This document shows positions 21,306 through 61,694 of a stretch of DNA of 64,000 bases, piece after piece; the stretch's first letter is position 1; every line of letters begins with the position of its first letter. The translations under genes and the position numbers were made by a program. Below the pieces are notes generated by a model. The model was given only the letters and a program-made list of their open reading frames with translations. It was not told the origin of the DNA and did no database searches. Origin of the DNA: Escherichia coli 042 (lineage in GTDB: Bacteria; Pseudomonadota; Gammaproteobacteria; Enterobacterales; Enterobacteriaceae); NCBI RefSeq assembly GCF_000027125.1, contig NC_017626.1. One strand, given 5' to 3'.

Positions 21306-21438
21306 TATTTGCCCCTGGGGTTAATGCGCTAAGCATAAGGGCGGATGATAGCACTCGTGATCCGGGTCATACATCTTTTTATAGTTAATGGCGCGGTGCA
21401 TTACCCTCAGGCAGGATAATGCGCCGCGCATCCGACTA

Positions 21439-22824
21439 TTACGTTTCGCTCACCGGCGTTCTGTCACCATCATACAACGGCACTTTGCGATAGCGGCGGA
21501 TCAGATACCACAAATATGCGCCGCCTAACGAAGCCCATACCAGACCGAGTGTCAGTGACGTTGACTCGAGGTTAACCCACAGCACACCCACCGTCAGCGC
21601 GCCAACCAGCGGCATCAGCAAATAGTGGAAGTGATCCTTCCAGCTTTTATTCATTCCTTTACGCCGCCAGAAATGATTAAACACCGACAGATTTACGAAG
21701 GTAAATGCCACCAGAGCACCGAAGTTAATCAATGCTGTCGCGGTGACTAAATCAAAGAACAGCGCTGACAACGCGACAATCCCGACCATAATGACGTTCA
21801 GTGCCGGAGTCCGCCATTTCGGGTGCACATAGCCAAACACGCGCTCCGGAAACACATTGTCACGCCCCATCACATACAGCAGACGCGACACGCTGGCGTG
21901 CGACGCCAGGCCAGACGCTAACGTGTTCACAAACGTGGTACAGAGGAAAATCGACTGGAAGAGCTTGCCGCCGACGTATAGCGCAATTTCAGGCAGTGCG
22001 GCGTCCGGGTCTTTAAAGCGGCTGATATCGGGAAAGAACAGCTGCATAAAGAACGACGCAGCGATAAAGATAACGCCGCCGTATACCGCCGTCAGGAAGA
22101 TGGCTTTCGGGATCACGCGTGCGGCGTCCGGCGTCTCTTCCGAAAGCGTGGTCACCGCATCGAAACCGAGGAAGGAGAAACAGACAATCGTCGCCCCGGT
22201 AATAATCGGGATCAGGTGCGCGTTCTCGCTGATAAACGGCTGAAGTGACCAGACGGTGCCAACGCCTTCTCCTTTATGCAGTCCCTGAACCACCAGGAAG
22301 ATAAACACCACCATGATGGAGATTTGCACCAGTACAAACAGGGTATTGAAGTTAGCAACCAGGTTGACGCTCTTCAGATTCGCGGCGGTTAAAATGGCGA
22401 CGAAGGTTACCACCCACACCCACGGCGGCACTTCCGGGAAGAGGGCGGAGAGATAGATTTTCGCCAATAAAACGTTGATCATTGGCAAAAAGAGATAATC
22501 CAGCAGTGATGACCATCCGACCATAAATCCGACGTGCGGGTTAATCGACTTTTGCGCGTAGGTATAGGCCGAACCGGCTTCCGGAAACTGGCGAACCAGT
22601 TTGCCGTAGCTGATAGCGGTAAACAGCACGCCCGCCAGCGCCAGCAAATAGGACGCCGGAACGTGACCGTCGCTAATGCCGGAGACAATACCAAAAGTAT
22701 CAAATACGGTCATCGGCGTGAGATAGGCCAGACCCATCATCACCACCTGCCACAATTTCAGTGATTTTCGCAGACGGGTTTTGCCAGATTGCGCAGCAAT
22801 AGTCAGTGGTGAATTAATAGCCAT
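21439..22824 (-). CDS. puuP: Putrescine importer PuuP (APC family)
   Basis: 461 aa from internal Met ([15 protein letters not shown]...); 12-TM amino-acid/polyamine permease. Confidence 0.9.
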
Positions 22825-23126
22825 AATTGCTGCCTCCCCTGCGTAATAAGGTTTGCGGTCGTGTCGACCTGAAATCAAACCTGTTTAGCAAGGGAAGCAA
22901 AGGGGGCAGAGTCCAGTCAGTCGCAGGAGGGGCGCATACGCAGCCTCCCTCGCCATGCGGGGATTTAATCATCGGCATCATCTCATTTCCTCGTCACAGT
23001 CTTAATCGTTAACGGAAGCCCGTTGCCGCCTGCGCTCCATAACGCGACATCCGGAAAATGTCTGGATTACCAGCAAATGTCAGGCCTGGCTCCGCTCAGG
23101 CCGATGAAACAACCCCGCAAGGGGTA

Positions 23127-24545
23127 TTACGCGTTTTTCAACATCCACTCAATTTCTGTTTCTGTGATGAGGCGCTCAAACTGCAACAGCTCATCATTTT
23201 TACAGGCGTGATAGACATGGCAGAAGCGTTCGCCTAAATAGCGGCGCAGGTGATCATTCTCGATAAACTCACCCAGGGCATCGCTCTGACGAATCGGGAA
23301 GGGTAAGCCTTCCTGTTCCAGCCCGTTACCTTCGACTTCTTCCTGTAATGGCAGTTCGTTATCAAGGCCATGCAAAATACCGGCAAAAATCGCCGCCATC
23401 ACCAGATACGGGTTGGCATCGGCACCCGCCACGCGATATTCCACGCGGTGATTATGGCGATCGCCGCACGGAATACGCAGGGCGACGGTGCGGTTGTTAT
23501 GGCCCCACGACGCCTGCGTCGGTACATACATACCTGGCTGGAAGCGGCGATACGAGTTCACGTTTGGTGCCAGCAACGCCATTGATGACGGCATCAGGTC
23601 AATCATCCCGGCAAGCATCTTTTTCAGCAGCGGCGAATCTTCGCCTTCCGCGTCAGAAAGCACGTTCTCGCCACGGTTATTTTGCATACTGATATGGATA
23701 TGCATCCCGCTGCCCGCGTGCTCTTCATACGGCTTCGCCATAAAAGTGGCGTGCATCTTATGCTTTTCTGCCATCAGACGCACCAGGCGTTTTAGTGCCA
23801 GCGCATCATCGCAAGCTTCCAGCACGTTATCAGTATGGTAAAGATTGATTTCAAACTGACCTGGCGAGGCCTCGGCGACCGCGCCATCTGCCGGAATCAG
23901 CTGTAACTGCGCCAGCTCATCAATATCATTAAGCACGTCGGCGAAGTGGTTGAGGTTATCAACGGAGTAAACCTGGCTTTGTGTATTGCGGTCATCGGTG
24001 CCGGGCGCGCAGGGCGGTTGCAGATATCCTTCAGCGTCGCGCTGGCGATCCAGTAAATAGAACTCCAGCTCTACCGCTACGACCGGGAACAATCCGCGCT
24101 GGCGCAGCTGCTGCCACAGGCGGTTAAGAACGTTCCGCGGCTCAACGTCAAAGGGAGCGCCATCTTCATCGACCATGGTCAGGAGCATCTGACCGATAAA
24201 CTCTGGATCGGCGGCAGAAGGGGTTAAGGAACCGAGAACAGGAACACAGGTACGATCCGGCTCGCCCATTTCCTGACCCAGGCCCGCTTCTTCTACTACA
24301 TTACCCAGAATATCCATTGCAAACACCGAGGCCGGGAAATAACACCCTTTCTCGAGCTTCTTCAGGCTTGAAACAGGAATACGTTTTCCACGGAAGCAAC
24401 CATTCAAATCGGTAAGTAAAACATCAACATATTGCGTATTCGGGTAGCGCTCCAGGTAGCGTTTCACTTCCTGCGTAAAGGCGCTACCCCGCCTCTCTTC
24501 TGACTGCTGAACAAAGTTCTCTACTTCAACGATATTGGTTTCCAT
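23127..24545 (-). CDS. puuA: Gamma-glutamylputrescine synthetase (glutamine synthetase family)
   Basis: 472 aa from internal Met (METNIVEVENFVQQ...); GS catalytic-domain motifs. Confidence 0.92.
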   Translation of the reverse strand: METNIVEVENFVQQSEERRGSAFTQEVKRYLERYPNTQYVDVLLTDLNGCFRGKRIPVSSLKKLEKGCYFPASVFAMDILGNVVEEAGLGQEMGEPDRTCVPVLGSLTPSAADPEFIGQMLLTMVDEDGAPFDVEPRNVLNRLWQQLRQRGLFPVVAVELEFYLLDRQRDAEGYLQPPCAPGTDDRNTQSQVYSVDNLNHFADVLNDIDELAQLQLIPADGAVAEASPGQFEINLYHTDNVLEACDDALALKRLVRLMAEKHKMHATFMAKPYEEHAGSGMHIHISMQNNRGENVLSDAEGEDSPLLKKMLAGMIDLMPSSMALLAPNVNSYRRFQPGMYVPTQASWGHNNRTVALRIPCGDRHNHRVEYRVAGADANPYLVMAAIFAGILHGLDNELPLQEEVEGNGLEQEGLPFPIRQSDALGEFIENDHLRRYLGERFCHVYHACKNDELLQFERLITETEIEWMLKNA

Positions 24546-24756
24546 GATTCTTCGCCTTTGGTTTGTTTTCCGCTCGTTATCAAAGCGTAAAATATAATGA
24601 CCACCATTCGAATCTGTATGCAAACTAAATGTTTGTCAAATGTTAAATTGAGTTTGCAAAAATGAAAACCCACTGCTAGATTGAAAAAATATTGAACATA
24701 AAGGTCATTTAAAGCGCAGTAATGGCGATAATTTAGTCCACTTTGTGAGATTGAGC
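24546..24756. promoter_or_regulatory. Divergent puuA / puuD control region with candidate PuuR operator
   Basis: AT-rich divergent intergenic region; inverted repeat atgcaaact...agtttgcaa and tandem aaatgtt motifs. Confidence 0.5.
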
Positions 24757-25521
24757 ATGGAAAATATAATGAACAATCCGGTTATCGGTGTCGTAATGTG
24801 CAGGAACAGGCTTAAGGGTCATGCGACCCAGACTCTGCAAGAAAAGTACCTGAATGCCATCATCCACGCAGGCGGCTTGCCAATTGCGCTGCCACATGCG
24901 CTGGCGGAACCGTCATTACTTGAACAACTTTTGCCGAAACTCGATGGCATTTATCTTCCTGGTAGTCCCAGCAATGTGCAGCCGCACCTATATGGTGAAA
25001 ACGGCGATGAGCCTGACGCCGATCCCGGGCGTGATCTTCTGAGCATGGCGTTAATTAATGCCGCACTCGAAAGGCGCATCCCCATTTTCGCCATCTGCCG
25101 GGGTTTACAGGAACTGGTGGTGGCAACCGGTGGTTCGTTGCATCGCAAGCTGTGCGAACAGCCTGAATTGCTGGAACATCGGGAAGATCCCGAACTGCCG
25201 GTGGAGCAGCAATATGCGCCGTCGCATGAAGTTCAGGTTGACGAGGGGGGATTACTGTCTGCGTTGTTACCTGAATGTAGCAACTTTTGGGTAAACTCTC
25301 TGCATGGACAAGGGGCGAAGGTCGTTAGCCCACGGTTGCGTGTTGAAGCTCGCTCGCCGGATGGCTTAGTTGAGGCGGTTAGCGTCATCAATCATCCTTT
25401 TGCGCTGGGCGTACAGTGGCACCCGGAATGGAACAGTAGCGAGTACGCGCTTTCGCGTATATTGTTCGAGGGCTTTATCACCGCTTGTCAGCACCATATC
25501 GCTGAAAAACAGCGACTCTGA
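24757..25521 (+). CDS. puuD: Gamma-glutamyl-GABA hydrolase (class I glutamine amidotransferase)
   Basis: 254 aa from MENIMNNPVIGVVMC...; catalytic Cys in AICRGLQ. Confidence 0.9.
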   Translation: MENIMNNPVIGVVMCRNRLKGHATQTLQEKYLNAIIHAGGLPIALPHALAEPSLLEQLLPKLDGIYLPGSPSNVQPHLYGENGDEPDADPGRDLLSMALINAALERRIPIFAICRGLQELVVATGGSLHRKLCEQPELLEHREDPELPVEQQYAPSHEVQVDEGGLLSALLPECSNFWVNSLHGQGAKVVSPRLRVEARSPDGLVEAVSVINHPFALGVQWHPEWNSSEYALSRILFEGFITACQHHIAEKQRL

Positions 25522-25547
25522 CCACTACAGTTTAAGGAAATGCAAAT

Positions 25548-26105
25548 ATGAGTGATGAGGGACTGGCGCCAGGAAAACGCTTGTCGGAAATCCGCCAGCA
25601 GCAGGGGCTTTCACAACGTCGTGCCGCCGAACTCTCCGGGCTGACTCACAGTGCTATCAGTACGATAGAACAAGATAAAGTCAGCCCTGCCATCAGTACG
25701 CTGCAAAAGCTGCTGAAGGTGTATGGTCTGTCACTCTCGGAATTCTTTTCCGAGCCGGAAAAACCTGATGAGCCGCAGGTCGTCATTAATCAGGACGACT
25801 TAATTGAGATGGGCAGTCAGGGTGTGTCAATGAAGCTGGTTCATAACGGTAACCCGAATCGCACGCTGGCGATGATCTTTGAAACGTACCAGCCGGGCAC
25901 AACCACTGGGGAAAGAATTAAGCATCAGGGTGAGGAAATAGGCACTGTACTGGAAGGTGAAATTGTTCTGACGATTAATGGTCAGGATTACCACCTCGTC
26001 GCGGGGCAAAGTTATGCCATTAATACCGGCATCCCGCACAGTTTCAGTAATACGTCGGCAGGTATTTGCCGAATTATCAGCGCCCATACGCCCACCACGT
26101 TTTAA
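25548..26105 (+). CDS. puuR: HTH-type repressor PuuR (XRE HTH plus cupin)
   Basis: 185 aa; N-terminal HTH (LSQRRAAELSGLTHSAISTIEQDK) and C-terminal cupin. Confidence 0.9.
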   Translation: MSDEGLAPGKRLSEIRQQQGLSQRRAAELSGLTHSAISTIEQDKVSPAISTLQKLLKVYGLSLSEFFSEPEKPDEPQVVINQDDLIEMGSQGVSMKLVHNGNPNRTLAMIFETYQPGTTTGERIKHQGEEIGTVLEGEIVLTINGQDYHLVAGQSYAINTGIPHSFSNTSAGICRIISAHTPTTF

Positions 26106-26254
26106 TCTTTTTGTTCTGTAAGCCGGGTAAGCGCAATGCGCCCGGCAATCTATAAAGAATGTCGCCAGAAATAAACGGGCATACGGCCCGGGGATCTCTG
26201 CGCCCTGACGTTCACAAACTGCATATATCTGATAGACGTGAAACAGGAGTCATA

Positions 26255-27742
26255 ATGAATTTTCATCATCTGGCTTACTGGCAGGATAAAGCGTTAAGTC
26301 TCGCCATTGAAACCCGCTTATTTATTAACGGTGAATATACTGCTGCGGCGGAAAATGAAACTTTTGAAACCGTTGATCCGGTCACCCAGGCACCGCTGGC
26401 GAAAATTGCCCGCGGCAAGAGCGTCGATATCGACCGTGCAGTGAGCGCAGCACGCGGCGTATTTGAACGCGGCGACTGGTCACTCTCTTCTCCGGCTAAA
26501 CGTAAAGCGGTACTGAATAAACTCGCCGATTTAATGGAAGCCAACGCCGAAGAGTTGGCACTGCTGGAAACGCTCGACACCGGCAAACCGATTCGTCACA
26601 GTCTGCGTGATGATATTCCCGGCGCGGCGCGCGCCATTCGCTGGTACGCCGAAGCGATCGACAAAGTGTATGGCGAAGTGGCGACCACCAGTAGCCATGA
26701 GCTGGCGATGATCGTGCGTGAACCGGTCGGCGTGATTGCCGCCATCGTGCCGTGGAACTTCCCGCTGCTGCTGACTTGCTGGAAACTCGGCCCGGCGCTG
26801 GCGGCGGGAAACAGCGTGATTCTAAAACCGTCTGAAAAATCACCGCTTAGTGCGATTCGTCTCGCGGGGCTGGCGAAAGAAGCAGGTCTGCCGGATGGCG
26901 TGTTGAACGTGGTGACGGGTTTTGGTCATGAAGCGGGGCAGGCGCTGTCGCGTCATAACGATATCGATGCCATCGCCTTTACCGGTTCGACCCGTACCGG
27001 GAAACAGCTGCTGAAAGATGCAGGCGACAGCAACATGAAACGCGTCTGGCTGGAAGCGGGCGGCAAAAGCGCCAACATCGTTTTCGCCGACTGTCCGGAT
27101 TTACAACAGGCAGCAAGCGCCACCGCAGCAGGCATCTTCTACAACCAGGGGCAGGTGTGTATCGCCGGAACGCGCCTGTTGCTGGAAGAGAGCATCGCCG
27201 ATGAATTCTTAGACCTGTTAAAACAGCAGGCGCAAAACTGGCAGCCGGGCCATCCACTTGATCCCGCAACCACCATGGGCACCTTAATCGACTGCGCCCA
27301 CGCCGACTCGGTCCATAGCTTTATTCGGGAAGGCGAAAGCAAAGGGCAACTGCTGCTGGATGGCCGTAACGCCGAGCTGGCTGCCGCCATCGGCCCGACC
27401 ATCTTTGTGGAGGTAGATCCGAATGCGTCCTTAAGCCGCGAAGAGATTTTCGGTCCGGTGCTGGTGGTCACGCGTTTCACATCAGAAGAACAGGCGCTAC
27501 AGCTTGCCAACGACAGCCAGTACGGACTTGGCGCGGCGGTATGGACGCGCGACCTCTCCCGCGCGCACCGCATGAGTCGCCGCCTGAAAGCCGGCTCCGT
27601 CTTCGTCAATAACTACAACGACGGCGATATGACCGTGCCGTTTGGCGGCTATAAGCAGAGCGGCAACGGGCGCGACAAATCCCTGCATGCCCTTGAAAAA
27701 TTCACCGAACTGAAAACCATCTGGATAAGCCTGGAGGCCTGA
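26255..27742 (+). CDS. puuC: Gamma-glutamyl-gamma-aminobutyraldehyde dehydrogenase (aldehyde dehydrogenase family)
   Basis: 495 aa from MNFHHLAYWQDK...; ALDH motifs (ELGGKSA-like, catalytic Cys in GQVCIAGTR). Confidence 0.9.
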   Translation: MNFHHLAYWQDKALSLAIETRLFINGEYTAAAENETFETVDPVTQAPLAKIARGKSVDIDRAVSAARGVFERGDWSLSSPAKRKAVLNKLADLMEANAEELALLETLDTGKPIRHSLRDDIPGAARAIRWYAEAIDKVYGEVATTSSHELAMIVREPVGVIAAIVPWNFPLLLTCWKLGPALAAGNSVILKPSEKSPLSAIRLAGLAKEAGLPDGVLNVVTGFGHEAGQALSRHNDIDAIAFTGSTRTGKQLLKDAGDSNMKRVWLEAGGKSANIVFADCPDLQQAASATAAGIFYNQGQVCIAGTRLLLEESIADEFLDLLKQQAQNWQPGHPLDPATTMGTLIDCAHADSVHSFIREGESKGQLLLDGRNAELAAAIGPTIFVEVDPNASLSREEIFGPVLVVTRFTSEEQALQLANDSQYGLGAAVWTRDLSRAHRMSRRLKAGSVFVNNYNDGDMTVPFGGYKQSGNGRDKSLHALEKFTELKTIWISLEA

Positions 27743-27743
27743 A

Positions 27744-29024
27744 ATGACCGAACATACCAGCAGTTACTACGCCGCCAGTGCGAATAAATACGCGCCATTC
27801 GACACGCTGAATGAGTCGATTTCCTGCGACGTTTGCGTGGTCGGTGGCGGCTATACCGGGCTGTCTTCCGCGCTGCATCTGGCGGAAGCGGGCTTTGACG
27901 TGGTGGTTCTTGAAGCCTCACGCATCGGCTTCGGCGCAAGCGGACGCAACGGCGGGCAGCTTGTGAACTCCTACAGCCGCGACATCGACGTCATTGAAAA
28001 AAGCTACGGCATGGACACCGCCCGTATGCTCGGCAGCATGATGTTCGAAGGTGGCGAGATCATCCGCGAACGTATCAAACGTTATCAGATTGACTGCGAC
28101 TACCGCCCCGGCGGCCTGTTTGTGGCGATGAATGATAAACAGCTCGCGACTCTGGAAGAGCAGAAAGAGAACTGGGAACGCTACGGCAATAAACAGCTGG
28201 AATTGCTGGACGCCAACGCCATTCGCCGCGAGGTCGCCAGCGATCGCTACACTGGTGCGCTGCTGGATCACAGCGGTGGGCATATTCACCCGCTAAACCT
28301 CGCCATTGGTGAAGCCGATGCCATCCGCCTGAACGGCGGGCGCGTGTATGAGCTTTCCGCCGTGACGCAGATCCAGCACACCACGCCAGCCGTGGTGCGG
28401 ACTGCCAATGGTCAGGTGACGGCGAAGTATGTGATTGTCGCCGGGAATGCGTATCTGGGCGATAAAGTAGAGCCGGAACTAGCGAAACGCAGCATGCCGT
28501 GCGGCACGCAGGTGATCACCACCGAACGGCTGTCGGAAGATTTAGCCCGTTCGCTGATCCCGAAAAACTACTGCGTTGAAGACTGTAACTATCTGCTTGA
28601 TTACTACCGTCTTACCGCCGATAACCGCCTGCTGTACGGCGGCGGCGTGGTCTACGGCGCGCGCGACCCGGATGACGTTGAGCGCCTTGTGGTGCCGAAA
28701 CTGCTGAAAACCTTCCCGCAGCTGAAGGGCGTGAAAATTGATTACCGCTGGACGGGCAACTTCCTGCTGACCTTGTCGCGCATGCCGCAGTTCGGTCGCC
28801 TTGATACCAACATCTATTACATGCAGGGTTACAGCGGCCACGGCGTCACCTGTACCCATCTTGCCGGGCGTTTGATTGCCGAACTGCTGCGCGGCGACGC
28901 CGAACGTTTCGATGCCTTCGCCAATCTGCCGCATTACCCGTTCCCCGGCGGGCGCACGCTGCGCGTGCCATTTACCGCGATGGGCGCGGCTTATTACAGC
29001 CTGCGCGATCGTCTGGGCGTTTAA
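27744..29024 (+). CDS. puuB: Gamma-glutamylputrescine oxidase (FAD-dependent)
   Basis: 426 aa; N-terminal FAD-binding fold VCVVGGGYTGLSSALHLAEAG. Confidence 0.9.
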   Translation: MTEHTSSYYAASANKYAPFDTLNESISCDVCVVGGGYTGLSSALHLAEAGFDVVVLEASRIGFGASGRNGGQLVNSYSRDIDVIEKSYGMDTARMLGSMMFEGGEIIRERIKRYQIDCDYRPGGLFVAMNDKQLATLEEQKENWERYGNKQLELLDANAIRREVASDRYTGALLDHSGGHIHPLNLAIGEADAIRLNGGRVYELSAVTQIQHTTPAVVRTANGQVTAKYVIVAGNAYLGDKVEPELAKRSMPCGTQVITTERLSEDLARSLIPKNYCVEDCNYLLDYYRLTADNRLLYGGGVVYGARDPDDVERLVVPKLLKTFPQLKGVKIDYRWTGNFLLTLSRMPQFGRLDTNIYYMQGYSGHGVTCTHLAGRLIAELLRGDAERFDAFANLPHYPFPGGRTLRVPFTAMGAAYYSLRDRLGV

Positions 29025-29061
29025 TTTCCGATTAACAGTGAAGAGTCAAAAGGTGTGAAAC

Positions 29062-30327
29062 ATGAGCAACAATGAATTCCATCAGCGTCGTCTTTCTGCT
29101 ACCCCACGCGGGGTTGGCGTGATGTGTAACTTCTTCGCCCAGTCGGCAGAAAACGCTACGCTGAAGGACGTAGAGGGCAACGAATACATCGATTTCGCCG
29201 CAGGCATTGCGGTGCTGAATACCGGGCATCGCCACCCTGATCTGGTCGCGGCGGTGGAGCAGCAATTGCAACAGTTTACCCACACGGCGTATCAGATTGT
29301 GCCGTACGAAAGCTACGTCACCCTGGCGGAGAAAATTAACGCCCTTGCCCCGGTGAGCGGGCAGGCTAAAACTGCGTTCTTCACCACCGGTGCGGAAGCG
29401 GTTGAGAACGCGGTGAAAATCGCCCGCGCCCATACCGGACGCCCTGGCGTGATTGCGTTTAGCGGCGGCTTCCACGGTCGTACATATATGACCATGGCGC
29501 TGACCGGAAAGGTCGCGCCATACAAAATCGGCTTCGGCCCGTTCCCCGGTTCGGTATATCACGTACCTTATCCGTCAGATTTACATGGCGTTTCAACGCA
29601 GGACTCTCTCGACGCCATCGAACGCTTGTTTAAATCGGACATTGAAGCGAAGCAGGTGGCGGCGATTATTTTCGAACCGGTGCAGGGCGAAGGCGGTTTC
29701 AACGTTGCACCAAAAGAGCTGGTTGCCGCCATTCGCCGCCTGTGCGACGAGCACGGCATTGTGATGATTGCCGATGAAGTGCAAAGCGGCTTTGCGCGTA
29801 CCGGTAAACTGTTTGCCATGGATCACTACGCCGATAAGCCGGACTTAATGACGATGGCGAAAAGCCTCGCAGGCGGCATGCCGCTTTCGGGCGTGGTCGG
29901 TAACGCGAATATTATGGACGCGCCCGCGCCGGGCGGGTTGGGTGGTACTTACGCCGGGAACCCGCTGGCGGTGGCTGCCGCGCACGCTGTGCTCAACATT
30001 ATCGACAAAGAATCACTCTGTGAACGCGCGAATCAACTGGGCCAGCGCCTGACAAACACGTTGATTGATGCCAAAGAAAGCGTTCCGGCCATCGCGGCGG
30101 TACGCGGTCTGGGGTCTATGATTGCGGCAGAGTTTAACGATCCGCAAACGGGCGAGCCGTCAGCGGCGATTGCACAGAAAATCCAGCAACGCGCGCTGGC
30201 GCAGGGGCTGCTTCTGCTGACCTGTGGCGCATACGGCAACGTGATTCGTTTCCTGTATCCGCTGACCATCCCGGATGCGCAATTCGATGCGGCAATGAAA
30301 ATTTTGCAGGATGCGCTGAACGATTAA
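29062..30327 (+). CDS. puuE: 4-aminobutyrate aminotransferase (class III PLP aminotransferase)
   Basis: 421 aa; class III aminotransferase motifs including the PLP-lysine region (FAMDHY...MTMAKSLAGG). Confidence 0.92.
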   Translation: MSNNEFHQRRLSATPRGVGVMCNFFAQSAENATLKDVEGNEYIDFAAGIAVLNTGHRHPDLVAAVEQQLQQFTHTAYQIVPYESYVTLAEKINALAPVSGQAKTAFFTTGAEAVENAVKIARAHTGRPGVIAFSGGFHGRTYMTMALTGKVAPYKIGFGPFPGSVYHVPYPSDLHGVSTQDSLDAIERLFKSDIEAKQVAAIIFEPVQGEGGFNVAPKELVAAIRRLCDEHGIVMIADEVQSGFARTGKLFAMDHYADKPDLMTMAKSLAGGMPLSGVVGNANIMDAPAPGGLGGTYAGNPLAVAAAHAVLNIIDKESLCERANQLGQRLTNTLIDAKESVPAIAAVRGLGSMIAAEFNDPQTGEPSAAIAQKIQQRALAQGLLLLTCGAYGNVIRFLYPLTIPDAQFDAAMKILQDALND

Positions 30328-30343
30328 TAGCCCAACGCAATAA

Positions 30344-30446: not shown

Positions 30447-31424
30447 CTAAATCTGGTGCTTTTTCAACAACGCGCGGAACTGATGATAGGTTAACCCCAG
30501 TAATTCAGCCGCGCGCTTCTGGTTATATTTCCCTTGTTGCAAACTGAGTTGCAGCAACTCTTTTTCCTGCTGCATCTGAAACTCACGTAAATCCAGCGGC
30601 AGTGTTGGAAGCGAGGTGGTTTCTGAAACGGCGATAGCGTCTTCAGGCGGACGCCGTTTAAAGGGATCAATAATAATGTCATCAAGCGGATAATCGCTGG
30701 TGCCGTGGCGATATACTGAACGTTCCACCACGTTTTTCAATTCACGAATATTTCCCGGCCAGCGATAATTCAGCAATGTTTCTCTGGCGCGCTCCGTAAA
30801 CCCCGGGAACAGAGGCAGCTTGATTTCCCGACACATCTGAATGGCAAAGTGTTCTGCCATCAGCATAATGTCGCTTTCGCGCTCGCGCAGGGGCGGCAGT
30901 TGCACTACATCGAAAGCCAGCCGGTCGAGCAGGTCAGCGCGAAAATTACCTTCATTGACCATCGCCGGGAGATCGGCATTCGTCGCGCATACCAACCGCA
31001 CATTCACCTGCAATGGCTGGCTGCCGCCAACGCGCTCCAGTTCACCGTACTCAATCACACGCAATAATTTCTCCTGCACCATCATCGGTGCCGTAGCGAG
31101 TTCATCAAGAAATAGCGTACCGCCGTCGGCACGTTCAAATCTCCCTGGATGACGTTTTTGCGCACCGGTAAACGCGCCCGCTTCGTGACCAAACAGTTCG
31201 GAATCCAGCAGATTTTCATTTAACGCCGCGCAGTTAAGGGAAATAAACGGCCCCTGCCAACGGGAGGAGAGATAATGCAGACGGCTGGCAATCAGCTCTT
31301 TACCTGTGCCGCGCTCGCCGATGATGAGCACCGGTTTGTCCAGCGGTGCGAGATGCGAAACCTGTTCCAGCACTTCGAGAAAGCTGTTCGCCTCACCGAG
31401 TAAATTATCTTTGTATTCTGCCAT
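30447..31424 (-). CDS. pspF: Sigma54-dependent activator PspF (AAA+ enhancer-binding protein)
   Basis: 325 aa; Walker A (GERGTGKE), GAFTGA motif, C-terminal HTH. Confidence 0.93.
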   Translation of the reverse strand: MAEYKDNLLGEANSFLEVLEQVSHLAPLDKPVLIIGERGTGKELIASRLHYLSSRWQGPFISLNCAALNENLLDSELFGHEAGAFTGAQKRHPGRFERADGGTLFLDELATAPMMVQEKLLRVIEYGELERVGGSQPLQVNVRLVCATNADLPAMVNEGNFRADLLDRLAFDVVQLPPLRERESDIMLMAEHFAIQMCREIKLPLFPGFTERARETLLNYRWPGNIRELKNVVERSVYRHGTSDYPLDDIIIDPFKRRPPEDAIAVSETTSLPTLPLDLREFQMQQEKELLQLSLQQGKYNQKRAAELLGLTYHQFRALLKKHQI

Positions 31425-31518: not shown

Positions 31519-32259
<741 letters not shown>

Positions 32260-32312
32260 TAACATCCAGGCGGCGTCCGAACGCGCCGCCGCTCATCGTC
32301 TAAGGAGTACTT

Positions 32313-32537
32313 ATGAGCGCGCTATTTCTGGCTATTCCGTTAACCATTTTTGTGCTGTTTGTTTTACCGATCTGGTTATGGCTGCATTACAGCAATCGTT
32401 CTGGTCGCAGTGAATTGTCGCAAAGTGAGCAGCAGCGATTAGCGCAACTGGCTGATGAAGCAAAACGGATGCGCGAACGTATTCAGGCGCTGGAATCTAT
32501 TCTTGATGCAGAACATCCGAACTGGAGGGATCGCTAA
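32313..32537 (+). CDS. pspB: Phage shock protein B
   Basis: 74-aa single-TM protein. Confidence 0.9.
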   Translation: MSALFLAIPLTIFVLFVLPIWLWLHYSNRSGRSELSQSEQQRLAQLADEAKRMRERIQALESILDAEHPNWRDR

Positions 32538-32896
32538 TGGCGGGCATTAATCTCAATAAAAAATTATGGCGTATTCCACAGCAGGGCATGGTCCGTGGCG
32601 TCTGCGCCGGGATTGCCAACTATTTTGATGTACCAGTAAAACTGGTGCGTATCCTGGTGGTGCTGTCGATTTTCTTCGGTCTGGCGCTGTTTACCCTGGT
32701 TGCTTACATCATTTTGTCATTTGCGCTTGATCCAATGCCGGACAACATGGCCTTTGGTGAGCAGCTACCTTCCAGCAGTGAATTGCTGGATGAAGTCGAC
32801 CGTGAACTGGCGGCAAGTGAAACGCGTTTACGCGAGATGGAACGTTATGTCACTTCCGATACTTTCACGTTACGTAGCCGTTTCCGTCAACTGTGA
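32537..32896 (+). CDS. pspC: Phage shock protein C
   Basis: 119 aa; start overlaps the pspB stop. Confidence 0.9.
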
Positions 32897-32904
32897 GGGA
32901 AGTT

Positions 32905-33126
32905 ATGAATACTCGCTGGCAACAGGCCGGGCAAAAGGTGAAGCCTGGTTTCAAATTAGCAGGCAAGCTGGTACTTCTTACCGCACTGCGCTATGGCCCG
33001 GCGGGTGTAGCTGGCTGGGCGATAAAATCAGTTGCTCGCCGACCACTGAAAATGTTGCTGGCCGTGGCGCTGGAACCGCTGTTAAGCCGGGCAGCCAATA
33101 AACTGGCGCAGCGTTATAAAAGGTGA
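32905..33126 (+). CDS. pspD: Phage shock protein D
   Basis: 73 aa from [12 protein letters not shown]... Confidence 0.85.
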
Positions 33127-33200: not shown

Positions 33201-33515
33201 ATGTTTAAAAAAGGCTTACTTGCTCTGACACTGGTGTTTTCACTGCCCGTTTTCGCCGCTGAACACTGGATCGATGTTCGTGTTCCAGAGCAGTATCAGC
33301 AAGAGCACGTTCAGGGAGCCATCAATATTCCCCTGAAGGAAGTGAAAGAGCGCATTGCCACCGCCGTTCCGGATAAAAACGACACCGTGAAAGTGTATTG
33401 CAATGCCGGACGCCAGTCAGGGCAGGCAAAAGAGATCCTTAGCGAGATGGGATATACCCACGTTGAGAACGCCGGCGGCCTGAAAGACATCGCAATGCCG
33501 AAGGTCAAAGGTTAA
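33201..33515 (+). CDS. pspE: Thiosulfate sulfurtransferase PspE (rhodanese)
   Basis: 104 aa; signal peptide and rhodanese active-site Cys in VYCNAGRQS. Confidence 0.9.
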   Translation: MFKKGLLALTLVFSLPVFAAEHWIDVRVPEQYQQEHVQGAINIPLKEVKERIATAVPDKNDTVKVYCNAGRQSGQAKEILSEMGYTHVENAGGLKDIAMPKVKG

Positions 33516-33633
33516 CAAATTACTTATTGAGCGGTGTAAACAACGCCGCTTATTCATTTGATAAATCAAAATTAACCCACATTATTATCTCCAGTATCTA
33601 ATCCTTTCTACAGCTTTCTGGCACAGGACAGCA

Positions 33634-35031
33634 ATGAAGCGACTTAAAAATGAACTCAATGCGCTGGTGAATCGGGGTGTCGACAGACATCTGCGCCTCG
33701 CTGTAACCGGACTTAGCCGCAGCGGCAAAACAGCGTTTATCACCGCGATGGTTAATCAGTTGCTCAATATTCATGCCGGAGCACGTTTGCCGCTTTTAAG
33801 TGCGGTGCGTGAAGAGCGCCTGCTGGGCGTAAAACGCATTCCCCAGCGTGACTTTGGCATTCCGCGCTTCACCTATGATGAAGGGCTGGCGCAGTTATAT
33901 GGCGATCCTCCCGCCTGGCCAACGCCAACGCGCGGCGTCAGTGAAATCCGCCTGGCGCTACGTTTTAAATCGAACGATTCGCTGCTACGCCACTTCAAGG
34001 ACACCTCCACGCTGTATCTGGAGATTGTGGATTATCCCGGCGAATGGCTGCTCGATCTGCCGATGCTGGCGCAGGACTATTTAAGCTGGTCGCGCCAGAT
34101 GACGGGCTTACTTAATGGTCAGCGCGGCGAATGGTCGGCGAAATGGCGAATGATGTGCGAAGGGCTGGATCCGCTAGCGCCTGCCGACGAAAACCGGCTG
34201 GCAGACATTGCCGCCGCGTGGACCGATTATCTCCACCACTGTAAACAGCAGGGGCTGCACTTTATTCAGCCTGGGCGCTTTGTCTTGCCGGGAGATATGG
34301 CAGGTGCGCCCGCGCTGCAATTCTTCCCGTGGCCGGATGTCGATGCCTGGGGTGAGTCCAAACTGGCGCAGGCCGATAAGCATACCAATGCCGGAATGCT
34401 GCGCGAGCGGTTTAATTATTACTGCGAGAAAGTGGTGAAGGGGTTCTATAAGAATCATTTTCTGCGCTTTGACCGCCAGATTGTGCTGGTGGATTGCCTG
34501 CAGCCTCTCAACAGTGGGCCACAGGCATTTAATGATATGCGTCTGGCGCTGACGCAGCTGATGCAAAGTTTCCACTACGGGCAGCGAACCCTGTTCCGGC
34601 GTTTGTTTTCGCCGGTTATCGATAAGCTATTGTTTGCTGCCACTAAAGCAGACCATGTGACCATCGATCAGCACGCCAATATGGTTTCATTACTGCAACA
34701 ACTAATTCAGGATGCCTGGCAAAATGCGGCGTTCGAAGGGATCAGCATGGACTGCCTGGGGCTGGCGTCAGTTCAGGCGACCACCAGCGGCATTATTGAT
34801 GTTAACGGTGAGAAAATCCCGGCGCTGCGCGGTAATCGACTCAGTGATGGCGCACCGCTCACTGTTTATCCTGGCGAAGTTCCCGCACGTTTGCCTGGTC
34901 AGGCGTTCTGGGATAAGCAAGGCTTCCAGTTTGAGGCGTTTCGTCCGCAGGTGATGGATGTCGACAAACCGCTGCCGCATATTCGTCTTGATGCTGCGCT
35001 GGAATTTTTAATAGGAGATAAATTGCGATGA
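33634..35031 (+). CDS. ycjX: YcjX, predicted P-loop NTPase (DUF463)
   Basis: 465 aa; Walker A-like [10 protein letters not shown]. Confidence 0.9.
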
Positions 35032-36089
35032 CCGAACCGTTAAAACCACGTATTGATTTCGACGGTCCACTGGAGGTTGATCAGAATTCAAAATTCAGGG
35101 CGCAACAGACCTTTGACGAAAATCAGGCGCAAAATTTTGCCCCGGCCACGCTCGACGAAGCGCAGGAAGAAGAGGGGCAAGTTGAAGCGGTGATGGACGC
35201 AGCGTTACGTCCGAAACGCAGCCTGTGGCGCAAAATGGTGATGGGCGGGTTGGCTCTGTTTGGCGCAAGCGTTGTCGGGCAGGGCGTGCAGTGGACAATG
35301 AACGCCTGGCAAACTCAGGATTGGGTAGCGCTGGGTGGATGTGCCGCTGGGGCATTGATTATCGGCGCTGGCGTAGGTTCTGTGGTAACAGAGTGGCGGC
35401 GCTTATGGCGCTTGCGACAGCGCGCCCATGAACGCGACGAAGCGCGCGATTTGTTGCACAGTCACGGCACGGGTAAAGGCCGCGCATTTTGCGAAAAACT
35501 GGCGCAGCAGGCGGGCATCGACCAGTCGCATCCGGCACTGCAACGCTGGTATGCCTCAATCCATGAAACGCAGAACGATCGTGAAGTGGTCAGCCTGTAT
35601 GCTCATCTGGTCCAGCCGGTTTTAGATGCCCAGGCGCGGCGCGAAATCAGCCGTTCGGCAGCGGAATCAACGTTAATGATCGCCGTTAGCCCGCTGGCGC
35701 TGGTGGATATGGCATTTATCGCCTGGCGCAATCTGCGTTTGATCAATCGCATCGCCACGCTGTATGGCATTGAACTGGGATATTACAGCCGTTTGCGCCT
35801 GTTTAAGCTGGTATTGCTGAATATCGCTTTCGCCGGAGCCAGCGAATTGGTGCGCGAAGTGGGGATGGACTGGATGTCGCAAGATCTCGCTGCGCGTTTG
35901 TCTACCCGGGCAGCTCAGGGGATTGGTGCAGGACTTCTGACGGCACGACTGGGGATTAAAGCTATGGAGCTTTGCCGCCCTCTGCCGTGGATTGACGATG
36001 ACAAACCTCGCCTCGGGGATTTCCGTCGTCGGCTTATCGGTCAGGTGAAAGAGACGCTGCAAAAAGGCAAAACGCCCAGCGAAAAATAA
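35028..36089 (+). CDS. ycjF: YcjF, inner-membrane protein (DUF697/UPF0283)
   Basis: 353 aa; overlaps the ycjX stop by 4 bp. Confidence 0.9.
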
Positions 36090-40115: not shown

Positions 40116-40405
40116 GATCGTCTCTGGTTCAGGAAGTATTACAGGCAGTGTTGTGCAAATTTTGCGGATTATCAAATCCTTTTCTTCAACGCTATGTCAT
40201 CGATCTTGTATCACTTTTTTGCCGGAAGTTGTTTGCATTTTCATTGATGTGCAGATATTAGAATTGTCGTAATGTTATATACATGGCGTATTTTATTCTT
40301 ACTGGTTCTACACATGTTAATCGCATCTGATTGATCAGTTCACCTTAATAAGTTTAATAAATCGTACTGCACATAGTACAGTACGATGGTAGCTATATAA
40401 TTGAT

Positions 40406-41044
40406 TTACATGAAGAATGGCTTATCGCCATCAGTCCCGGGTTGATTGATGCCTATATTCTCACCAATGTGTTTCTCAGGTTTATCGATGATATCTGTAA
40501 TTAATGCTGCGACACTCTTACGTGATACGATCGTACCTTTGAATGGTTCATTGCGTGAGGTAAGCTCATAATCAATAATATCTTCATCAGTCAGCCAGGC
40601 AGGGCGAAGAATTGTATATTCCAGTCCAGAAGCCTCAATTGCATCCGCAGCCCTGCGGAATGGTTTTAGGGGCTCACCAATAACTGCATTATTCCATTCG
40701 CCAAATTTTCCTGGAACTTCATCATAAATACCGAGGGAAAGAACAAAGATCAGACGTTTAACATCACAGGCTTTCATCGCAGCGATCACTGAATTTGCCT
40801 GAATATCTAAATCTTCCCCCGTAAGGTTGGCATACACAACATCCTGTCCCTGCATGGCCTGCTTCAGTGCTGCATGATTCAGTACATCCCCCATAATAAT
40901 CTTGCTATTAGTTGGATAGGGTTTGTGGATTTTTGCTGGCTGACGGGCAAATAAAGTTTGTTTAATGGTTTGTTTATCTGCCAGTTGATTAATCACATGG
41001 CGGGCTATCTGACCGCCAGCACCAAGAATCAGTACATTTTTCAT
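40406..41044 (-). CDS. ymjC: NAD(P)-binding (NmrA/SDR-like) protein, apparently intact
   Basis: 212-aa ORF with N-terminal Rossmann motif (ILGAGGQIARHV); assigned by position between mpaA and ycjY. Confidence 0.7.
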   Translation of the reverse strand: MKNVLILGAGGQIARHVINQLADKQTIKQTLFARQPAKIHKPYPTNSKIIMGDVLNHAALKQAMQGQDVVYANLTGEDLDIQANSVIAAMKACDVKRLIFVLSLGIYDEVPGKFGEWNNAVIGEPLKPFRRAADAIEASGLEYTILRPAWLTDEDIIDYELTSRNEPFKGTIVSRKSVAALITDIIDKPEKHIGENIGINQPGTDGDKPFFM

Positions 41045-41114
41045 GAAACTTTTCCCAGATTATTGGCAGCAATATGCCAGGCCATATCACTATTACGGAT
41101 TTGAATATGTTTCA

Positions 41115-42047
41115 TTACAGAGTTTCCTCAAAGAACGGCGCTAATACTGAAATTGCTTCAGCCACATAGACTTTGCCGTCATAAAGAACCATATGGTTTG
41201 CGCCTTCAACAATGTGATAGCGTTTATCCTGGCTTGATGCTCGATCGTACAGGTCGTCACTCATCCATTTGCTCCCTGCCTGGCTGCCCGCCACAATCTG
41301 TATCGGCTGAGTCAGGTACACTTCCGCCATATGGTAAGCATCATAGGTAATAATCTGGTTAAGGCTGCGCAAAGTAGCGTAACCCGGTGCTGTTGGATAC
41401 TGCGCGCGAGGGGTGTGGTAATACTCCCAGGCCTGACGCAGTTCTTCGTTCGGCGCATCGGACTCCTTCATTGGTGCCAGTGGCATGGTGGCGTATTCTC
41501 CGCTGCTAATATCGCTGGTTCGGGCGTTTGAACCCGCGTCAACGTATGGTAGGGCATCAATAGATTTCACATTGTTTTCCCAACCATTACGGAACATCGA
41601 ACCAATATTGACCGCACTAACAGTACCGATGGCCTTGATGCGGCGATCCTGAATTGCAGCATTGGCTGTATATCCTGCACCGGCACAAATTCCCATCGCA
41701 CCAATTCGGCTATTGTCGACATAAGAAAGCGTTGTCAGATAATCAATCACGGCACTGACGTCTTCAGTACGAATGTATGGGTTTTCTAACTGACGCGGCT
41801 CGCCGCCGCTTTCACCTTGATAAGATGCGTCATAAGCAATAGTGACAAATCCCTTTTCCGCCAGTTTTTCGGCATAGGTTCCAGCCGTTTGCTCTTTAAC
41901 GCCCCCACCTGGGTGAGATACCACAATTGCCGGATACTGACGGGTTTCATCAAATTTTGGAGGGAAATAGATCACTGCAGACAAAGAGATGGTTGGATTA
42001 TTGCTGTTAGTGAAGCTGACTTTATTATTCATCATTCCGTTCCTCAT
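41115..42047 (-). CDS. ycjY: Alpha/beta hydrolase
   Basis: 310-aa ORF (true start may be a few codons downstream); nucleophile-elbow-like GICAGAG. Confidence 0.85.
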   Translation of the reverse strand: MRNGMMNNKVSFTNSNNPTISLSAVIYFPPKFDETRQYPAIVVSHPGGGVKEQTAGTYAEKLAEKGFVTIAYDASYQGESGGEPRQLENPYIRTEDVSAVIDYLTTLSYVDNSRIGAMGICAGAGYTANAAIQDRRIKAIGTVSAVNIGSMFRNGWENNVKSIDALPYVDAGSNARTSDISSGEYATMPLAPMKESDAPNEELRQAWEYYHTPRAQYPTAPGYATLRSLNQIITYDAYHMAEVYLTQPIQIVAGSQAGSKWMSDDLYDRASSQDKRYHIVEGANHMVLYDGKVYVAEAISVLAPFFEETL

Positions 42048-42172
42048 GGAGTTGTCGGTTCGTTTTAACGGTTGGTGATATCACTATAGATATTGATCAT
42101 TAAGTTGATTAGACCCAAAATCATGATTAGACCTATCATTTAAATGATTAATAGATTGTATGGAGATACTGA

Positions 42173-43072
42173 ATGAAGCGTGAAGAAATCGCTGATCTGA
42201 TGGCGTTTGTCGTCGTTGCAGAGGAGCGTAGCTTCACTCGCGCAGCAGCCCGCCTGAGCATGGCGCAGTCAGCTTTAAGCCAGATAGTGCGCCGTATAGA
42301 AGAACGATTGGGATTGCGGCTTCTGACACGAACCACGCGCAGCGTTGTACCCACTGAAGCGGGCGAGCATCTTTTGTCTGTTCTTGGCCCTATGTTGCAT
42401 GACATAGATTCTGCCCTGACATCCCTGAGCGATCTGCAGAACCGCCCATCCGGGACAATACGTATTACTACTGTAGAACATGCAGCAAAAACGATATTGT
42501 TACCAGCTATGCGCACATTCCTGAAATCGCATCCTGAAATTGATATCCAGCTTACCATTGATTATGGTTTGACCGATGTCGTTTCTGAACGTTTTGATGC
42601 AGGCGTCCGTCTGGGTGGGGAGATGGATAAAGATATGATCGCCATTCGAATCGGGCCAGATATACCAATGGCTATTGTTGGCTCACCGGATTATTTTTCT
42701 CGTCGAAGTGCTCCAACGTCAGTGTCACAATTAATAGATCATCAGGCAATTAATTTGTATCTTCCCACATCGGGTACAGCAAATCGCTGGAGATTAATAC
42801 GCGGTGGACGTGAAGTTCGTGTTCGCATGGAAGGTCAGCTTTTACTGAATACGATAGACCTGATCATTGATGCTGCAATTGATGGGCATGGATTGGCGTA
42901 TCTACCTTATGATCAGGTTGAGCGGGCTATTAAAGAAAAAAAACTGATACGTGTTTTGGATAAATTCACACCAGATTTACCCGGTTATCACCTGTACTAT
43001 CCACACCGTCGACATGCTGGCTCGGCATTCTCATTATTTATAGATAGGCTGAAGTATAAAGGTGCTGTTTAG
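42173..43072 (+). CDS. pgrR: LysR-type regulator PgrR (YcjZ)
   Basis: 299 aa; LysR HTH (FTRAAARLSMAQSALSQIVRRIE), divergent from ycjY. Confidence 0.9.
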   Translation: MKREEIADLMAFVVVAEERSFTRAAARLSMAQSALSQIVRRIEERLGLRLLTRTTRSVVPTEAGEHLLSVLGPMLHDIDSALTSLSDLQNRPSGTIRITTVEHAAKTILLPAMRTFLKSHPEIDIQLTIDYGLTDVVSERFDAGVRLGGEMDKDMIAIRIGPDIPMAIVGSPDYFSRRSAPTSVSQLIDHQAINLYLPTSGTANRWRLIRGGREVRVRMEGQLLLNTIDLIIDAAIDGHGLAYLPYDQVERAIKEKKLIRVLDKFTPDLPGYHLYYPHRRHAGSAFSLFIDRLKYKGAV

Positions 43073-43408
43073 CACTACTTGCTGATACATTAATTTAATT
43101 CTTCTCTTAACGTATTCTCAGTTCCTTTCAACGTTTTGGTCATTTTTTATTCTTCGTACAATGGCGACAGATGCTGATTATGATACCGAAAACGGGTTTG
43201 AACGTGCGAAGCCCGAACGTAGTGTTCGGAGTTCTATGTGCTTTACCGCATTTTGGAGACTATTATTTACACTAAATCTGATTTGATATATTGATACTTA
43301 AAACATTTGATGCTTCCTTTGTCACTTTTTTGATGGAAGTTGTTTGCATTTCTTTAAGGCGAAACAAATAATTACGCATCAATTTTAATGTCGGTTAGAG
43401 GGAAACTT

Positions 43409-46605: not shown

Positions 46606-46616
46606 GTAAATAAATA

Positions 46617-46641
46617 TCCTCCGGCATAGCCGGAGGTTTTT
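46617..46641 (+). terminator. Rho-independent terminator of ynaJ
   Basis: cctccggc-ata-gccggagg hairpin followed by tttttc. Confidence 0.65.
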
Positions 46642-47320
46642 CAAATGCGCCTATAAGGCTCTCTTACCAGCCGCGCCCTAACAGGCGCACACGATCTGAC
46701 ATTTGCATCCAACTTCGTTACTTACGGCCCGTAAACGGGCTGCCCGGATAGGGAATCGATAACTGCTCTCCCATTTTATCCTCTTCAAGCTGGTGCTTTA
46801 TGTAATCCTGTATCTTCGCCGTGTTCTTACCCACCGTATCGACGTAATACCCTCTGCACCAGAACTCCCTGTTCCTGTATTTGAATTTCAAATCACCAAA
46901 CTGCTCGTAAAGCATCAGACTGCTTTTCCCTTTCAGATATCCCATAAAGCCTGATACGCTCATTTTGGGCGGGATCTCCACAAGCATATGGATATGATCT
47001 GCACAGCATTCAGCTTCCAGAATCCGTACACTTTTCCACTCACACAGCTTTCTCAAAATACAGCCTATTGCTCTACGCTTCTCTCTGTAGAACACCTGTC
47101 TTCGGTATTTTGGCGCAAATACTATGTGATATTTACAGTTCCATCGGGTGTGCGCTAAGCTCTTTTCGTTCCCCATTGGGACCCCCTTTTGATTTCTTGT
47201 TTGACACTTGCAGTTGCCAGACCGCAAGGTGTTTTAACAAATCAAAAGGGGTTTTAATAACTGGCTCAAAGCTGAAAGCTTTCCGGAACCCCCAGCCTAG
47301 CTGGGGGTTTTCTGTGCACA
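46640..47320 (-). mobile_element. IS200-family (IS200/IS605) insertion sequence; boundaries approximate
   Basis: Contains an IS200-type tnpA; left-end hairpins on the IS strand (cccccagctaggctggggg at 47290-47308 and an RBS-sequestering inverted repeat ccccttttgattt / aaatcaaaagggg); lies between the ynaJ and uspE terminators. Confidence 0.8.
46718..47176 (-). CDS. tnpA: IS200-type Y1 (HUH) transposase TnpA
   Basis: 152 aa from MGNEKSLAHTRWNCKYHIVFAPKYRR...; HUH motif (ADHIHML) and catalytic Tyr region (RGYYVDTVG). Confidence 0.9.
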   Translation of the reverse strand: MGNEKSLAHTRWNCKYHIVFAPKYRRQVFYREKRRAIGCILRKLCEWKSVRILEAECCADHIHMLVEIPPKMSVSGFMGYLKGKSSLMLYEQFGDLKFKYRNREFWCRGYYVDTVGKNTAKIQDYIKHQLEEDKMGEQLSIPYPGSPFTGRK

Positions 47321-47346
47321 AAAAATAGGCCCGTTAACTCGGGCCT
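47321..47346 (-). terminator. Rho-independent terminator of uspE
   Basis: ggcccg-agttaa-cgggcc hairpin followed by a T-run on the minus strand, just downstream of the uspE stop. Confidence 0.6.
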
Positions 47347-47366
47347 TGTCAGTTATTGAAGAGTCG

Positions 47367-48317
47367 TTAATCGTCTTCTTCGTCATCCAGTTCAACGGGT
47401 GTCTGATATTGGTCAGGTTTAATGACCAGCAGGTCGCAGCGAAGATGATCAATCACCTGTTCCGCCGTGTTGCCGAGGAATGCTGCTGAAATACCGGTGC
47501 GTCCGACCGTGCCCAGAACCACAATCCCCGCCTGTAAATGCTCCGCCAAATCAGGAATCACCTCTTCTGGCAGACCTTTTTCTACGTGCGTCATGTTTTC
47601 ATTAATGCCGAATTTCTGCCGCAGGGCTTTCATTGCCAGCAAATGTTGCCCACGAATGGCATCGTTATAAACGCTCGGATCAAATTCCGGCAGTTCAATC
47701 GCGATATTAATTGGCGTTACCGGATAAGCGCCAACCAGATGAACTTCGGTATGGTTGACTTGTTCCGCCAGTTCGATCGTCTCTTTGACCAGTTTTTCAT
47801 TGAGCGCATTATGGTACGGCTCTTCACTGGCGAGATTCACCGCCACCAGCGCCTTACCCCCTTCCGGCCACGGCTGGTCTTTCACCATCCACACCGGGCT
47901 TGGGCATTTGCGTAACAGATGCCAGTCCGTTGGCGTAAAAATCACCGCTTCCAGACGGTCATGTTGGTGCGCCATTTTTAGCACCAAATCGTGCCCGCCG
48001 CTGATCACTTCCTGAATGATGGCTTCGAAAGGACGGTTATGCCAGACCACTTTAATTTCAATGGGAACGCCAGCATTGAGATAATATTTTGCCTGCTCGT
48101 GGATCCAGGCTGTACGCTGGCTGATGACGCCCTGACGCATAGCGGTACGTTCGTCCGGAGAGAGCAGGGTGGTCATTTCGTATGAGAAGTCATAGATCGG
48201 CAAAAAGGCTTTAATTTTGCCACCAATCCGTTGATGTAAATAAACAGCTCGCCGCAATGCTGGTTGGTCGTCCTGGTTAGGATCGATAACAACGAGCATG
48301 TTCTGATACATAGCCAT
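47367..48317 (-). CDS. uspE: Universal stress protein E (tandem Usp domains)
   Basis: 316 aa from [18 protein letters not shown]... Confidence 0.92.
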
Positions 48318-60579: not shown

Positions 60580-60707
60580 TGAAATGTTGAATCGCAGGGT
60601 GCAAGAGTAAACATCTTCTTCGGGATTGCCGGATGCGACGCTGGCCGCGTCTTCTCCGGCCTCCATAAGAGTAGCCCGATAAGCTTGCGCATCGGGCGCT
60701 ATCCGGG

Positions 60708-61643: not shown

Positions 61644-61694
61644 TATTTCAGTTCTCTGGTACTAAATGGGGCAAATTGGGGGCAAACTTTGCAA

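Follow-up and report, generated by a model that had tools for sequence, protein, structure and literature searches.

The closest described counterpart of the locus studied here is the ycjMNOPQRSTUV-ompG/ycjW cluster of Escherichia coli K-12, which lies between pspE on its left and ycjX on its right. In K-12, YcjW represses the ycjM operon, and loss of YcjW raises both the expression of pspE and PspE-dependent H2S production (PMC6599011). On the other side of the cluster, ycjXF are reported to be Psp-associated in some species and were co-induced with the psp genes during phiX174 infection (PMC8125068). Presence or absence of ycjM has been proposed as a marker separating 'enteric' from 'environmental' Escherichia (Deng et al. 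2014, Water Res 61:224); the passage of PMC13118800 that cites this work gives ycjM as present in most E. coli and as missing or inconsistent in environmental and cryptic Escherichia.

Here we analyse the same locus in a 64,000-nt stretch of DNA from E. coli 042 (the window). It shares with K-12 the left and right neighbours, pspE and ycjX, but holds none of the 12 genes of the K-12 cluster, and the non-coding edges of that cluster are only 55–67% identical to the spacer found in the window. We compare this island-free allele with complete E. coli genomes and with other species, and weigh the histories by which the empty locus could have arisen.

pspE directly adjoins ycjX in the window

A preliminary description of this DNA, made from its letters alone, placed pspE about 118 bp from ycjX and took the intervening K-12 block to be absent. 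Open reading frame coordinates, a profile match for PspE and the RefSeq name of ycjX all agree with that placement: a 104-aa reading frame (33201–33515, + strand) is followed by one of 465 aa (33634–35031, + strand), with 118 bp between them (33516–33633). The features of the locus are as follows.

30447–31424, − strand: pspF, sigma-54 activator of the psp operon (NCBIfam NF008622, 680 bits; annotation of the near relative H1)
31591–33126, + strand: pspA-pspB-pspC-pspD (NCBIfam equivalog matches, each above its cut-off; annotation)
33201–33515, + strand: pspE, thiosulfate sulfurtransferase (rhodanese), the last gene before the junction (NCBIfam NF007627, 213 bits against a cut-off of 102)
33516–33633, + strand: pspE–ycjX spacer of 118 bp, the island-free allele of the ycjM-ycjW/ompG locus (372 of 5,426 genomes)
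33528–33552, + strand: terminator-like hairpin after pspE (terminator scan; fold)
33553–33557, no strand: approximate empty site, the place of the ~14-kb island in K-12-type genomes (alignments of the K-12 edges)
33558–33585, + strand: candidate ycjX promoter (promoter scan)
33615–33633, + strand: ycjX-proximal leader, TTTCTGG CACAGGACAGCA (pairwise alignments; megablast breakpoints)
33634–35031, + strand: ycjX, YcjX-family GTP-binding protein (RefSeq annotation of matching genomes; orthologues beside the psp operon)
35028–36089, + strand: ycjF, TIGR01620 family (NCBIfam TIGR01620, 430 bits), overlapping ycjX by 4 bp

A tblastn search of the 64-kb window with 11 island proteins gave no match, and blastn with the island DNA gave a single match of 33 bp (E = 0.005); the block is therefore absent from the window rather than moved within it. 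With a spacer that is non-coding throughout and none of the tested island genes in the 64 kb, the window represents the island-free state, as had been proposed. The PspE protein allele WP_000473128.1 is common to most of the island-free genomes that we sampled. One island-free soil isolate, VCSW7, has an internal stop in ycjX, and its annotation lists the gene as a pseudogene (L091:6119-7516).

Elements of the spacer

The hairpin quoted in the preliminary description, gcggtgtaaacaacgccgc, occupies 33531–33549 and sits inside a 10-bp stem (33528–33552) with a 5-nt loop, followed by TTCATTTGAT. It folds at −14.7/−14.8 kcal/mol, with z = −4.5 to −5.1 relative to shuffled sequences, none of which was equally stable. 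This strong stem, supported by both the fold and the terminator scan, confirms the hairpin after pspE as real and terminator-like. In its tail, UUAUUCAUUU, the U-tract is interrupted (TTCATTT) and there is no clean run of U; the island-bearing allele has U9. Equivalent hairpins occur in E. albertii, in strain SCPM-O-B-8794 (L004) and in island-bearing strains. Given the interrupted U-tract and the 118-bp spacing of the two genes on the same strand, some read-through from the psp operon into ycjXF past this weak tract is plausible, as the ancestral arrangement discussed below would predict.

Downstream of the hairpin, the candidate ycjX promoter can be read in two ways. The promoter scan gives a sigma-70-like element, TTGATA-16 nt-CATTAT (9 of 12 positions, 33558–33585), and the same stretch contains a sigma-32-like element, TTGATAA...CCCACAT (33558–33582), which resembles the sigma-32 (RpoH) consensus that we used (−35 CTTGAAA, −10 CCCCATNT, spacing 13–15 bp). 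The two readings are equally possible from the sequence, and any assignment of promoter type would be tentative. The TTGATAA motif is kept upstream of ycjX in Escherichia, Citrobacter and Enterobacter. We also considered a widely conserved sigma-32 promoter and set it aside as a low-confidence suggestion at most, the strict sigma-32 pattern occurring in just 5 of 80 species loci among the matches listed; a search of the accessible literature found no support for a sigma-32 promoter at ycjX.

When the left and right edges of the K-12 island are aligned to the window spacer, the empty site falls at 33553–33557, between the terminator and the TTGATAA motif, a position that is only approximate because the island edges are just 55–67% identical to the spacer. 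Close identity to island-bearing E. coli restarts in the ycjX-proximal leader (33615–33633), with megablast breakpoints at query position 522, that is, window position 33621.

The island in K-12-type genomes

In a K-12-like chromosome, RefSeq annotation places 14,113 bp between the pspE stop codon and the ycjX ATG, encoding ycjM, N, O, P, Q, R, S, T, pgmB (ycjU), a frameshifted ycjV, ompG and, on the minus strand, ycjW. The preliminary description had given this block (ycjM-ycjV, ompG and ycjW between pspE and ycjX) correctly, and its claim of absence presupposed that pspE does not adjoin ycjX in the reference itself, which is the case. The island occupies the same position in CFT073, IAI39 and Z0117EC0005. 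Its products are glucosylglycerate and kojibiose phosphorylases, an ABC sugar importer, dehydrogenases, a beta-phosphoglucomutase, the OmpG porin and the LacI-type repressor YcjW.

Like integrase- or tRNA-associated islands, this is a multi-kilobase accessory block that is present or absent at one fixed site. Unlike them, it lacks any annotated integrase, IS element or tRNA, its genes being only metabolic, transport, porin and regulatory, and at 51.0% its GC content hardly departs from the 52.3% of its flanks. Nor did we find the junction repeats for which the preliminary description had proposed to look: in island-bearing strains, no repeats at the island boundaries rose above chance.

The island varies among the strains that carry it. 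In a four-strain comparison (the K-12-like L001:18629-32374 against L002, L084 and L086), island genes show 3–11% nucleotide divergence, reaching 10.9% in ycjT and pgmB, against 1–4% in the psp genes. Island-edge identity among island-bearing E. coli ranges from 79 to 97%, and the edges are mosaic: on the left CFT073, IAI39 and Z0117EC0005 are alike, and on the right K-12 is close to CFT073. This pattern suggests that several island alleles, or repeated imports, may exist within E. coli. We infer that the ycj island acts as a 'metabolic island' exchanged through homologous recombination.

The island-free allele is a minority allele, apparently of phylogroup D

The junction query matches 5,423 of 5,426 complete E. 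coli genomes and is continuous in only 372 of them; elsewhere its pspE and ycjX portions match separately, as they do in every island-bearing genome examined. That the locus varies between strains, as first proposed, is thus plain. Searching the same 5,426 genomes at low stringency with the 118-bp spacer alone recovered exactly those 372 (~7%), with one copy in each, all chromosomal and all at least 99% identical; the search found no diverged copy among the other complete E. coli genomes. The island-free isolates come from sources that include humans, poultry, dog, cat, cattle and pig. One of them, BEC1-S17-ESBL-09, shares its gene order and 99.5% identity with the window along 61.6 kb.

The window and six sampled island-free genomes (from human, chicken, soil and egret) form one clade in neighbour-joining trees of both flanks. 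Diversity inside this clade is 0.4–0.9% in the left flank and 0.9–3.2% in the right flank, which argues for an old lineage rather than a recent sweep. In these local flank trees the clade does not branch off at the base but falls among the island-bearing lineages.

Under the Clermont scheme, genomes positive for both arpA and chuA belong to phylogroups D and E. We counted these markers by inclusion–exclusion on record counts; the window does not include the arpA locus. An arpA fragment matches 4,088 genomes and arpA or the spacer matches 4,093, so that 367 of the 372 island-free genomes carry arpA; a chuA fragment matches 2,236 genomes and chuA or the spacer also matches 2,236, so that all 372 carry chuA. 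The two markers occur together in 931 genomes. Island-bearing strains include K-12 and HS (phylogroup A), O157:H7 (E), CFT073 (B2) and IAI39 (F). The marker counts correspond to the D/E signature and O157:H7, of phylogroup E, carries the island; we therefore take the island-free allele to be essentially a phylogroup D trait, a label that would probably apply to all 372 genomes. ST2747, which has been placed by MLST and ANI in group D proper, alongside UMN026 and 042 (PMC4765171), is among the six sampled island-free genomes and has a spacer identical to that of the window. Phylogroup F was ruled out for the clade, since IAI39 carries the island. We found no statement of the phylogroup D association, or of an ancestral-type spacer, in the searchable literature, and the pangenome and clade II literature held nothing specific on the ycj genes.

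The spacer matches uninterrupted loci of other Escherichia

A YcjX search of species contigs with 10-kb flanks listed at least 80 species loci, a set without E. fergusonii, Salmonella and the named cryptic clades (I–V). Among the matches listed, 64 of 80 loci have under 400 bp between ycjX and the nearest psp gene, the last of its operon; they comprise most Enterobacterales loci and also Vibrionaceae and Aeromonas, and mark psp beside ycjXF as an ancient arrangement. In most listed Enterobacterales, pspD (or pspC) leads straight to ycjX. pspE itself is accessory: among 82 loci listed it was detected only in Escherichia, Citrobacter and Phytobacter, which thus differ from the ancestral pspF-pspABC(D)-ycjXF synteny of Enterobacterales and Vibrionaceae in having an extra pspE between pspD and ycjX. 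Four listed loci (L026, L040, L049 and L056) have other insertions of 1–3 kb between psp and ycjX, and the psp–ycjX gap is a recurrent site of gene gain. The ycj island itself also occupies this locus in some members of Enterobacter, Superficieibacter and Siccibacter, where the identity of its proteins to those of K-12 declines roughly in parallel with that of the flanking genes.

Among the listed loci, pspE is followed directly by ycjX in E. albertii, in Citrobacter youngae and in 'E. coli SCPM-O-B-8794' (NZ_JAATUR010000011.1). The last of these is about 90–92% identical to the window over 17 kb of core genes, roughly the distance of E. albertii; on the basis of this ~90% identity we treat it as a separate Escherichia species, probably a cryptic Escherichia clade whose record bears an incorrect species name.

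The window spacer aligns end to end with those of both outgroups, E. albertii (103 of 120 positions identical, z = 19) and SCPM-O-B-8794 (107 of 118, z = 20), and both alignments cover the hairpin and a central stretch that is missing from K-12. For comparison of the edges we confined ourselves to the shared core, as the 110 bp upstream of ycjX are confounded by ycjW leader sequence. Over the core, which runs from TTGATAA to the ycjX ATG, the window shares 89% identity with each outgroup and 62–67% with K-12, CFT073, IAI39 and Z0117EC0005; the same core is 62–64% identical between the window and Citrobacter and 58–62% between the window and Enterobacter, so that island-bearing E. coli do no better than other genera. 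Over the 45 bp past the pspE stop, the window is 78–93% identical to the outgroups against 55–61% to island-bearing E. coli.

The coding flanks behave differently from the spacer. Between the window and island-bearing strains they differ by 1–4% overall and by 1–3% close to the junction, the figure being 1.0% for pspE and 2.9% for the opening 200 bp of ycjX. The right flank holds no fixed differences, and both haplotypes are equidistant from the outgroups. Neither haplotype has, in the coding flanks near the junction, a divergence spike or a foreign tract that would betray the direction of an import.

In two Citrobacter, sp. FP75 (L030:8321-10001) and C. werkmanii (L058:8318-10001), the island is found on the upstream side of pspE, with the gene order ...ompG, ycjW (−), pspE (+), ycjX (+). 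There ycjW is divergently adjacent to pspE, a classic regulator–target layout that may bear on the reported effect of YcjW on pspE in K-12. The pspE–ycjX spacer of these two genomes matches that of the island-free C. youngae, with 83–86% identity on the core.

Origin of the empty locus

The preliminary description left undecided whether the island-free state is ancestral or a deletion. Collinearity with the outgroups, together with the divergent island edges, favours an ancestral-type spacer. We consider it probable, though far from certain, that the island-free clade kept the ancestral empty locus and that other E. coli gained the island as a block with edges of its own. A deletion from an island-bearing chromosome would leave E. 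coli-type edges, and these are absent here; the alignments thus favour the view that the window holds a native, uninterrupted Escherichia locus with no deletion scar. The island-bearing haplotype, for its part, looks like a block imported with its own terminator and promoter-proximal sequence. The ancestral order would have been the pspE stop, the hairpin terminator, the ycjX promoter region and ycjX. This empty arrangement would have been kept in E. albertii, in the second Escherichia species and in one old chuA+ arpA+ E. coli clade, with other E. coli lineages gaining the island and its non-coding edges, presumably by a homologous replacement that used the conserved flanks, psp and ycjX, and involved no mobile element.

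That the spacer is simply the scar of a deletion in place is what one might expect from the presence of the island in 93% of E. coli, and the terminator-like and promoter-like elements of the spacer do also flank the K-12 island. This history is nevertheless very improbable: it does not sit with a spacer that is collinear from end to end with the uninterrupted spacers of two Escherichia species, nor with one that shares 55–67% identity with the island edges when the genes beside it reach 97–99%, and the island ends offer no direct repeats for precise excision. Fast in-place divergence of the island edges is possible, given the 79–97% identity found among island-bearing E. coli. A misassembled or collapsed junction, or some other artefact of assembly or sampling, has a negligible probability, since each of 372 independent complete chromosomes, drawn from many hosts, countries and laboratories, shows the identical junction a single time.

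Secondary loss by allelic replacement deserves more weight, although we judge it unlikely. Here an island-bearing ancestor would have received the empty-site allele from an island-free Escherichia relative through recombination in pspE and ycjX. The nesting of the island-free clade among island-bearing lineages in the flank trees and the presence of the island in phylogroups A, B2, E and F speak for such a replacement, as does a spacer of outgroup type; E. coli recombines readily, and the junction mosaicism of island-bearing strains shows recombination at this very locus. Against it, the spacer is 11–14% diverged from both outgroups, as are the flanks, so that neither outgroup is a recent donor; the coding sequence at the junction has neither raised divergence nor an outgroup-like tract; and no other complete E. 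coli genome holds a divergent version of the spacer. A spacer-to-outgroup distance equal to that of the flanks, with no foreign tract, likewise leads us to infer retention of the empty allele rather than its re-acquisition.

Some observations sit less well with retention. In most genome phylogenies phylogroup D does not branch first, which, like the nested position of the clade in the flank trees, speaks for re-acquisition; a single gain after the split of D is therefore not the most parsimonious course without later spread of the island within the species by recombination. An old presence of the island with losses across the family would also fit, as the island at the same locus in Enterobacter, Superficieibacter and Siccibacter may indicate.

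Other variable segments in the region

Several other segments of the window differ between strains or species. An IS200C transposase gene lies between ynaJ and uspE (46718–47176, from the annotation of the near-identical strain H1); alignments with E. albertii (L003) break over 46610–47367, and the alignment with SCPM-O-B-8794 ends sooner, at 45029. A segment of ~3 kb (40240–43315), carrying an SDR-family oxidoreductase gene, ycjY and pgrR according to the H1 annotation, is missing from the alignments with both. At 60700–63600, uspF and ompN come straight after dbpA-ttcA; K-12 carries the Rac prophage beside ttcA, and the window thus appears to be Rac-free, a second empty site.

The fabI-sapF interval holds ycjD alone in the window (15032–15397) and in K-12. 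In CFT073, IAI39 and Z0117EC0005 (in the last, at least the final gene) it holds an ~8-kb efflux cluster (L084:2434-13509, L085:35808-43300) of genes for a TetR regulator, an RND adaptor, an RND pump, an outer-membrane factor and an MFS transporter. In CFT073 (L086:1-1592), ymjA is followed by a short puuP remnant and then pspF, and the whole puuP-puuA-puuDRCBE putrescine cluster, which occupies ~21400–30330 in the window, is absent.

Functional consequences

Variable presence of ycjM is already published, and the allele described here is annotated in hundreds of RefSeq genomes; the phylogroup D association and the ancestral-type spacer are refinements of an ordinary gene-content polymorphism. 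For pan-genome annotation the result is mainly a matter of bookkeeping: the allele of the window is normal and intact, with no lesion. In evolutionary terms, the locus illustrates well how a metabolic island can be exchanged at a site between two conserved operons with no help from mobile-element machinery. It concerns the same polymorphism as the proposed ycjM marker, as that marker is presented in the part of PMC13118800 that cites it, but differs from that presentation in placing the ycjM-negative state in 372 complete E. coli genomes of a chuA+ arpA+ clade, human and animal isolates included, a distribution at odds with a marker of environmental strains alone. With ~7% of complete genomes lacking ycjM, among them isolates from humans, poultry and companion animals, a PCR marker based on this gene would miss a whole clade.

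Strains with the empty allele should lack the kojibiose/glucosylglycerate pathway, its ABC importer, OmpG and YcjW. As ycjW is absent, the YcjW–pspE circuit should be impossible in the allele of the window, and results obtained in K-12 on the YcjW/pspE/H2S circuit would not be transferable to island-free strains.

A bolder reading, which we regard as quite unlikely, is that E. coli maintains two old, non-recombining haplotypes: phylogroup D with the ancestral psp–ycjXF coupling, a leaky terminator and no YcjW, and the other lineages with an imported island that uncouples ycjXF and puts pspE under YcjW. Were this true, phylogroup D would be set apart systematically from other E. coli by the wiring of its Psp/YcjXF envelope-stress response, by the H2S that it makes through PspE and by how it uses kojibiose and glucosylglycerate.
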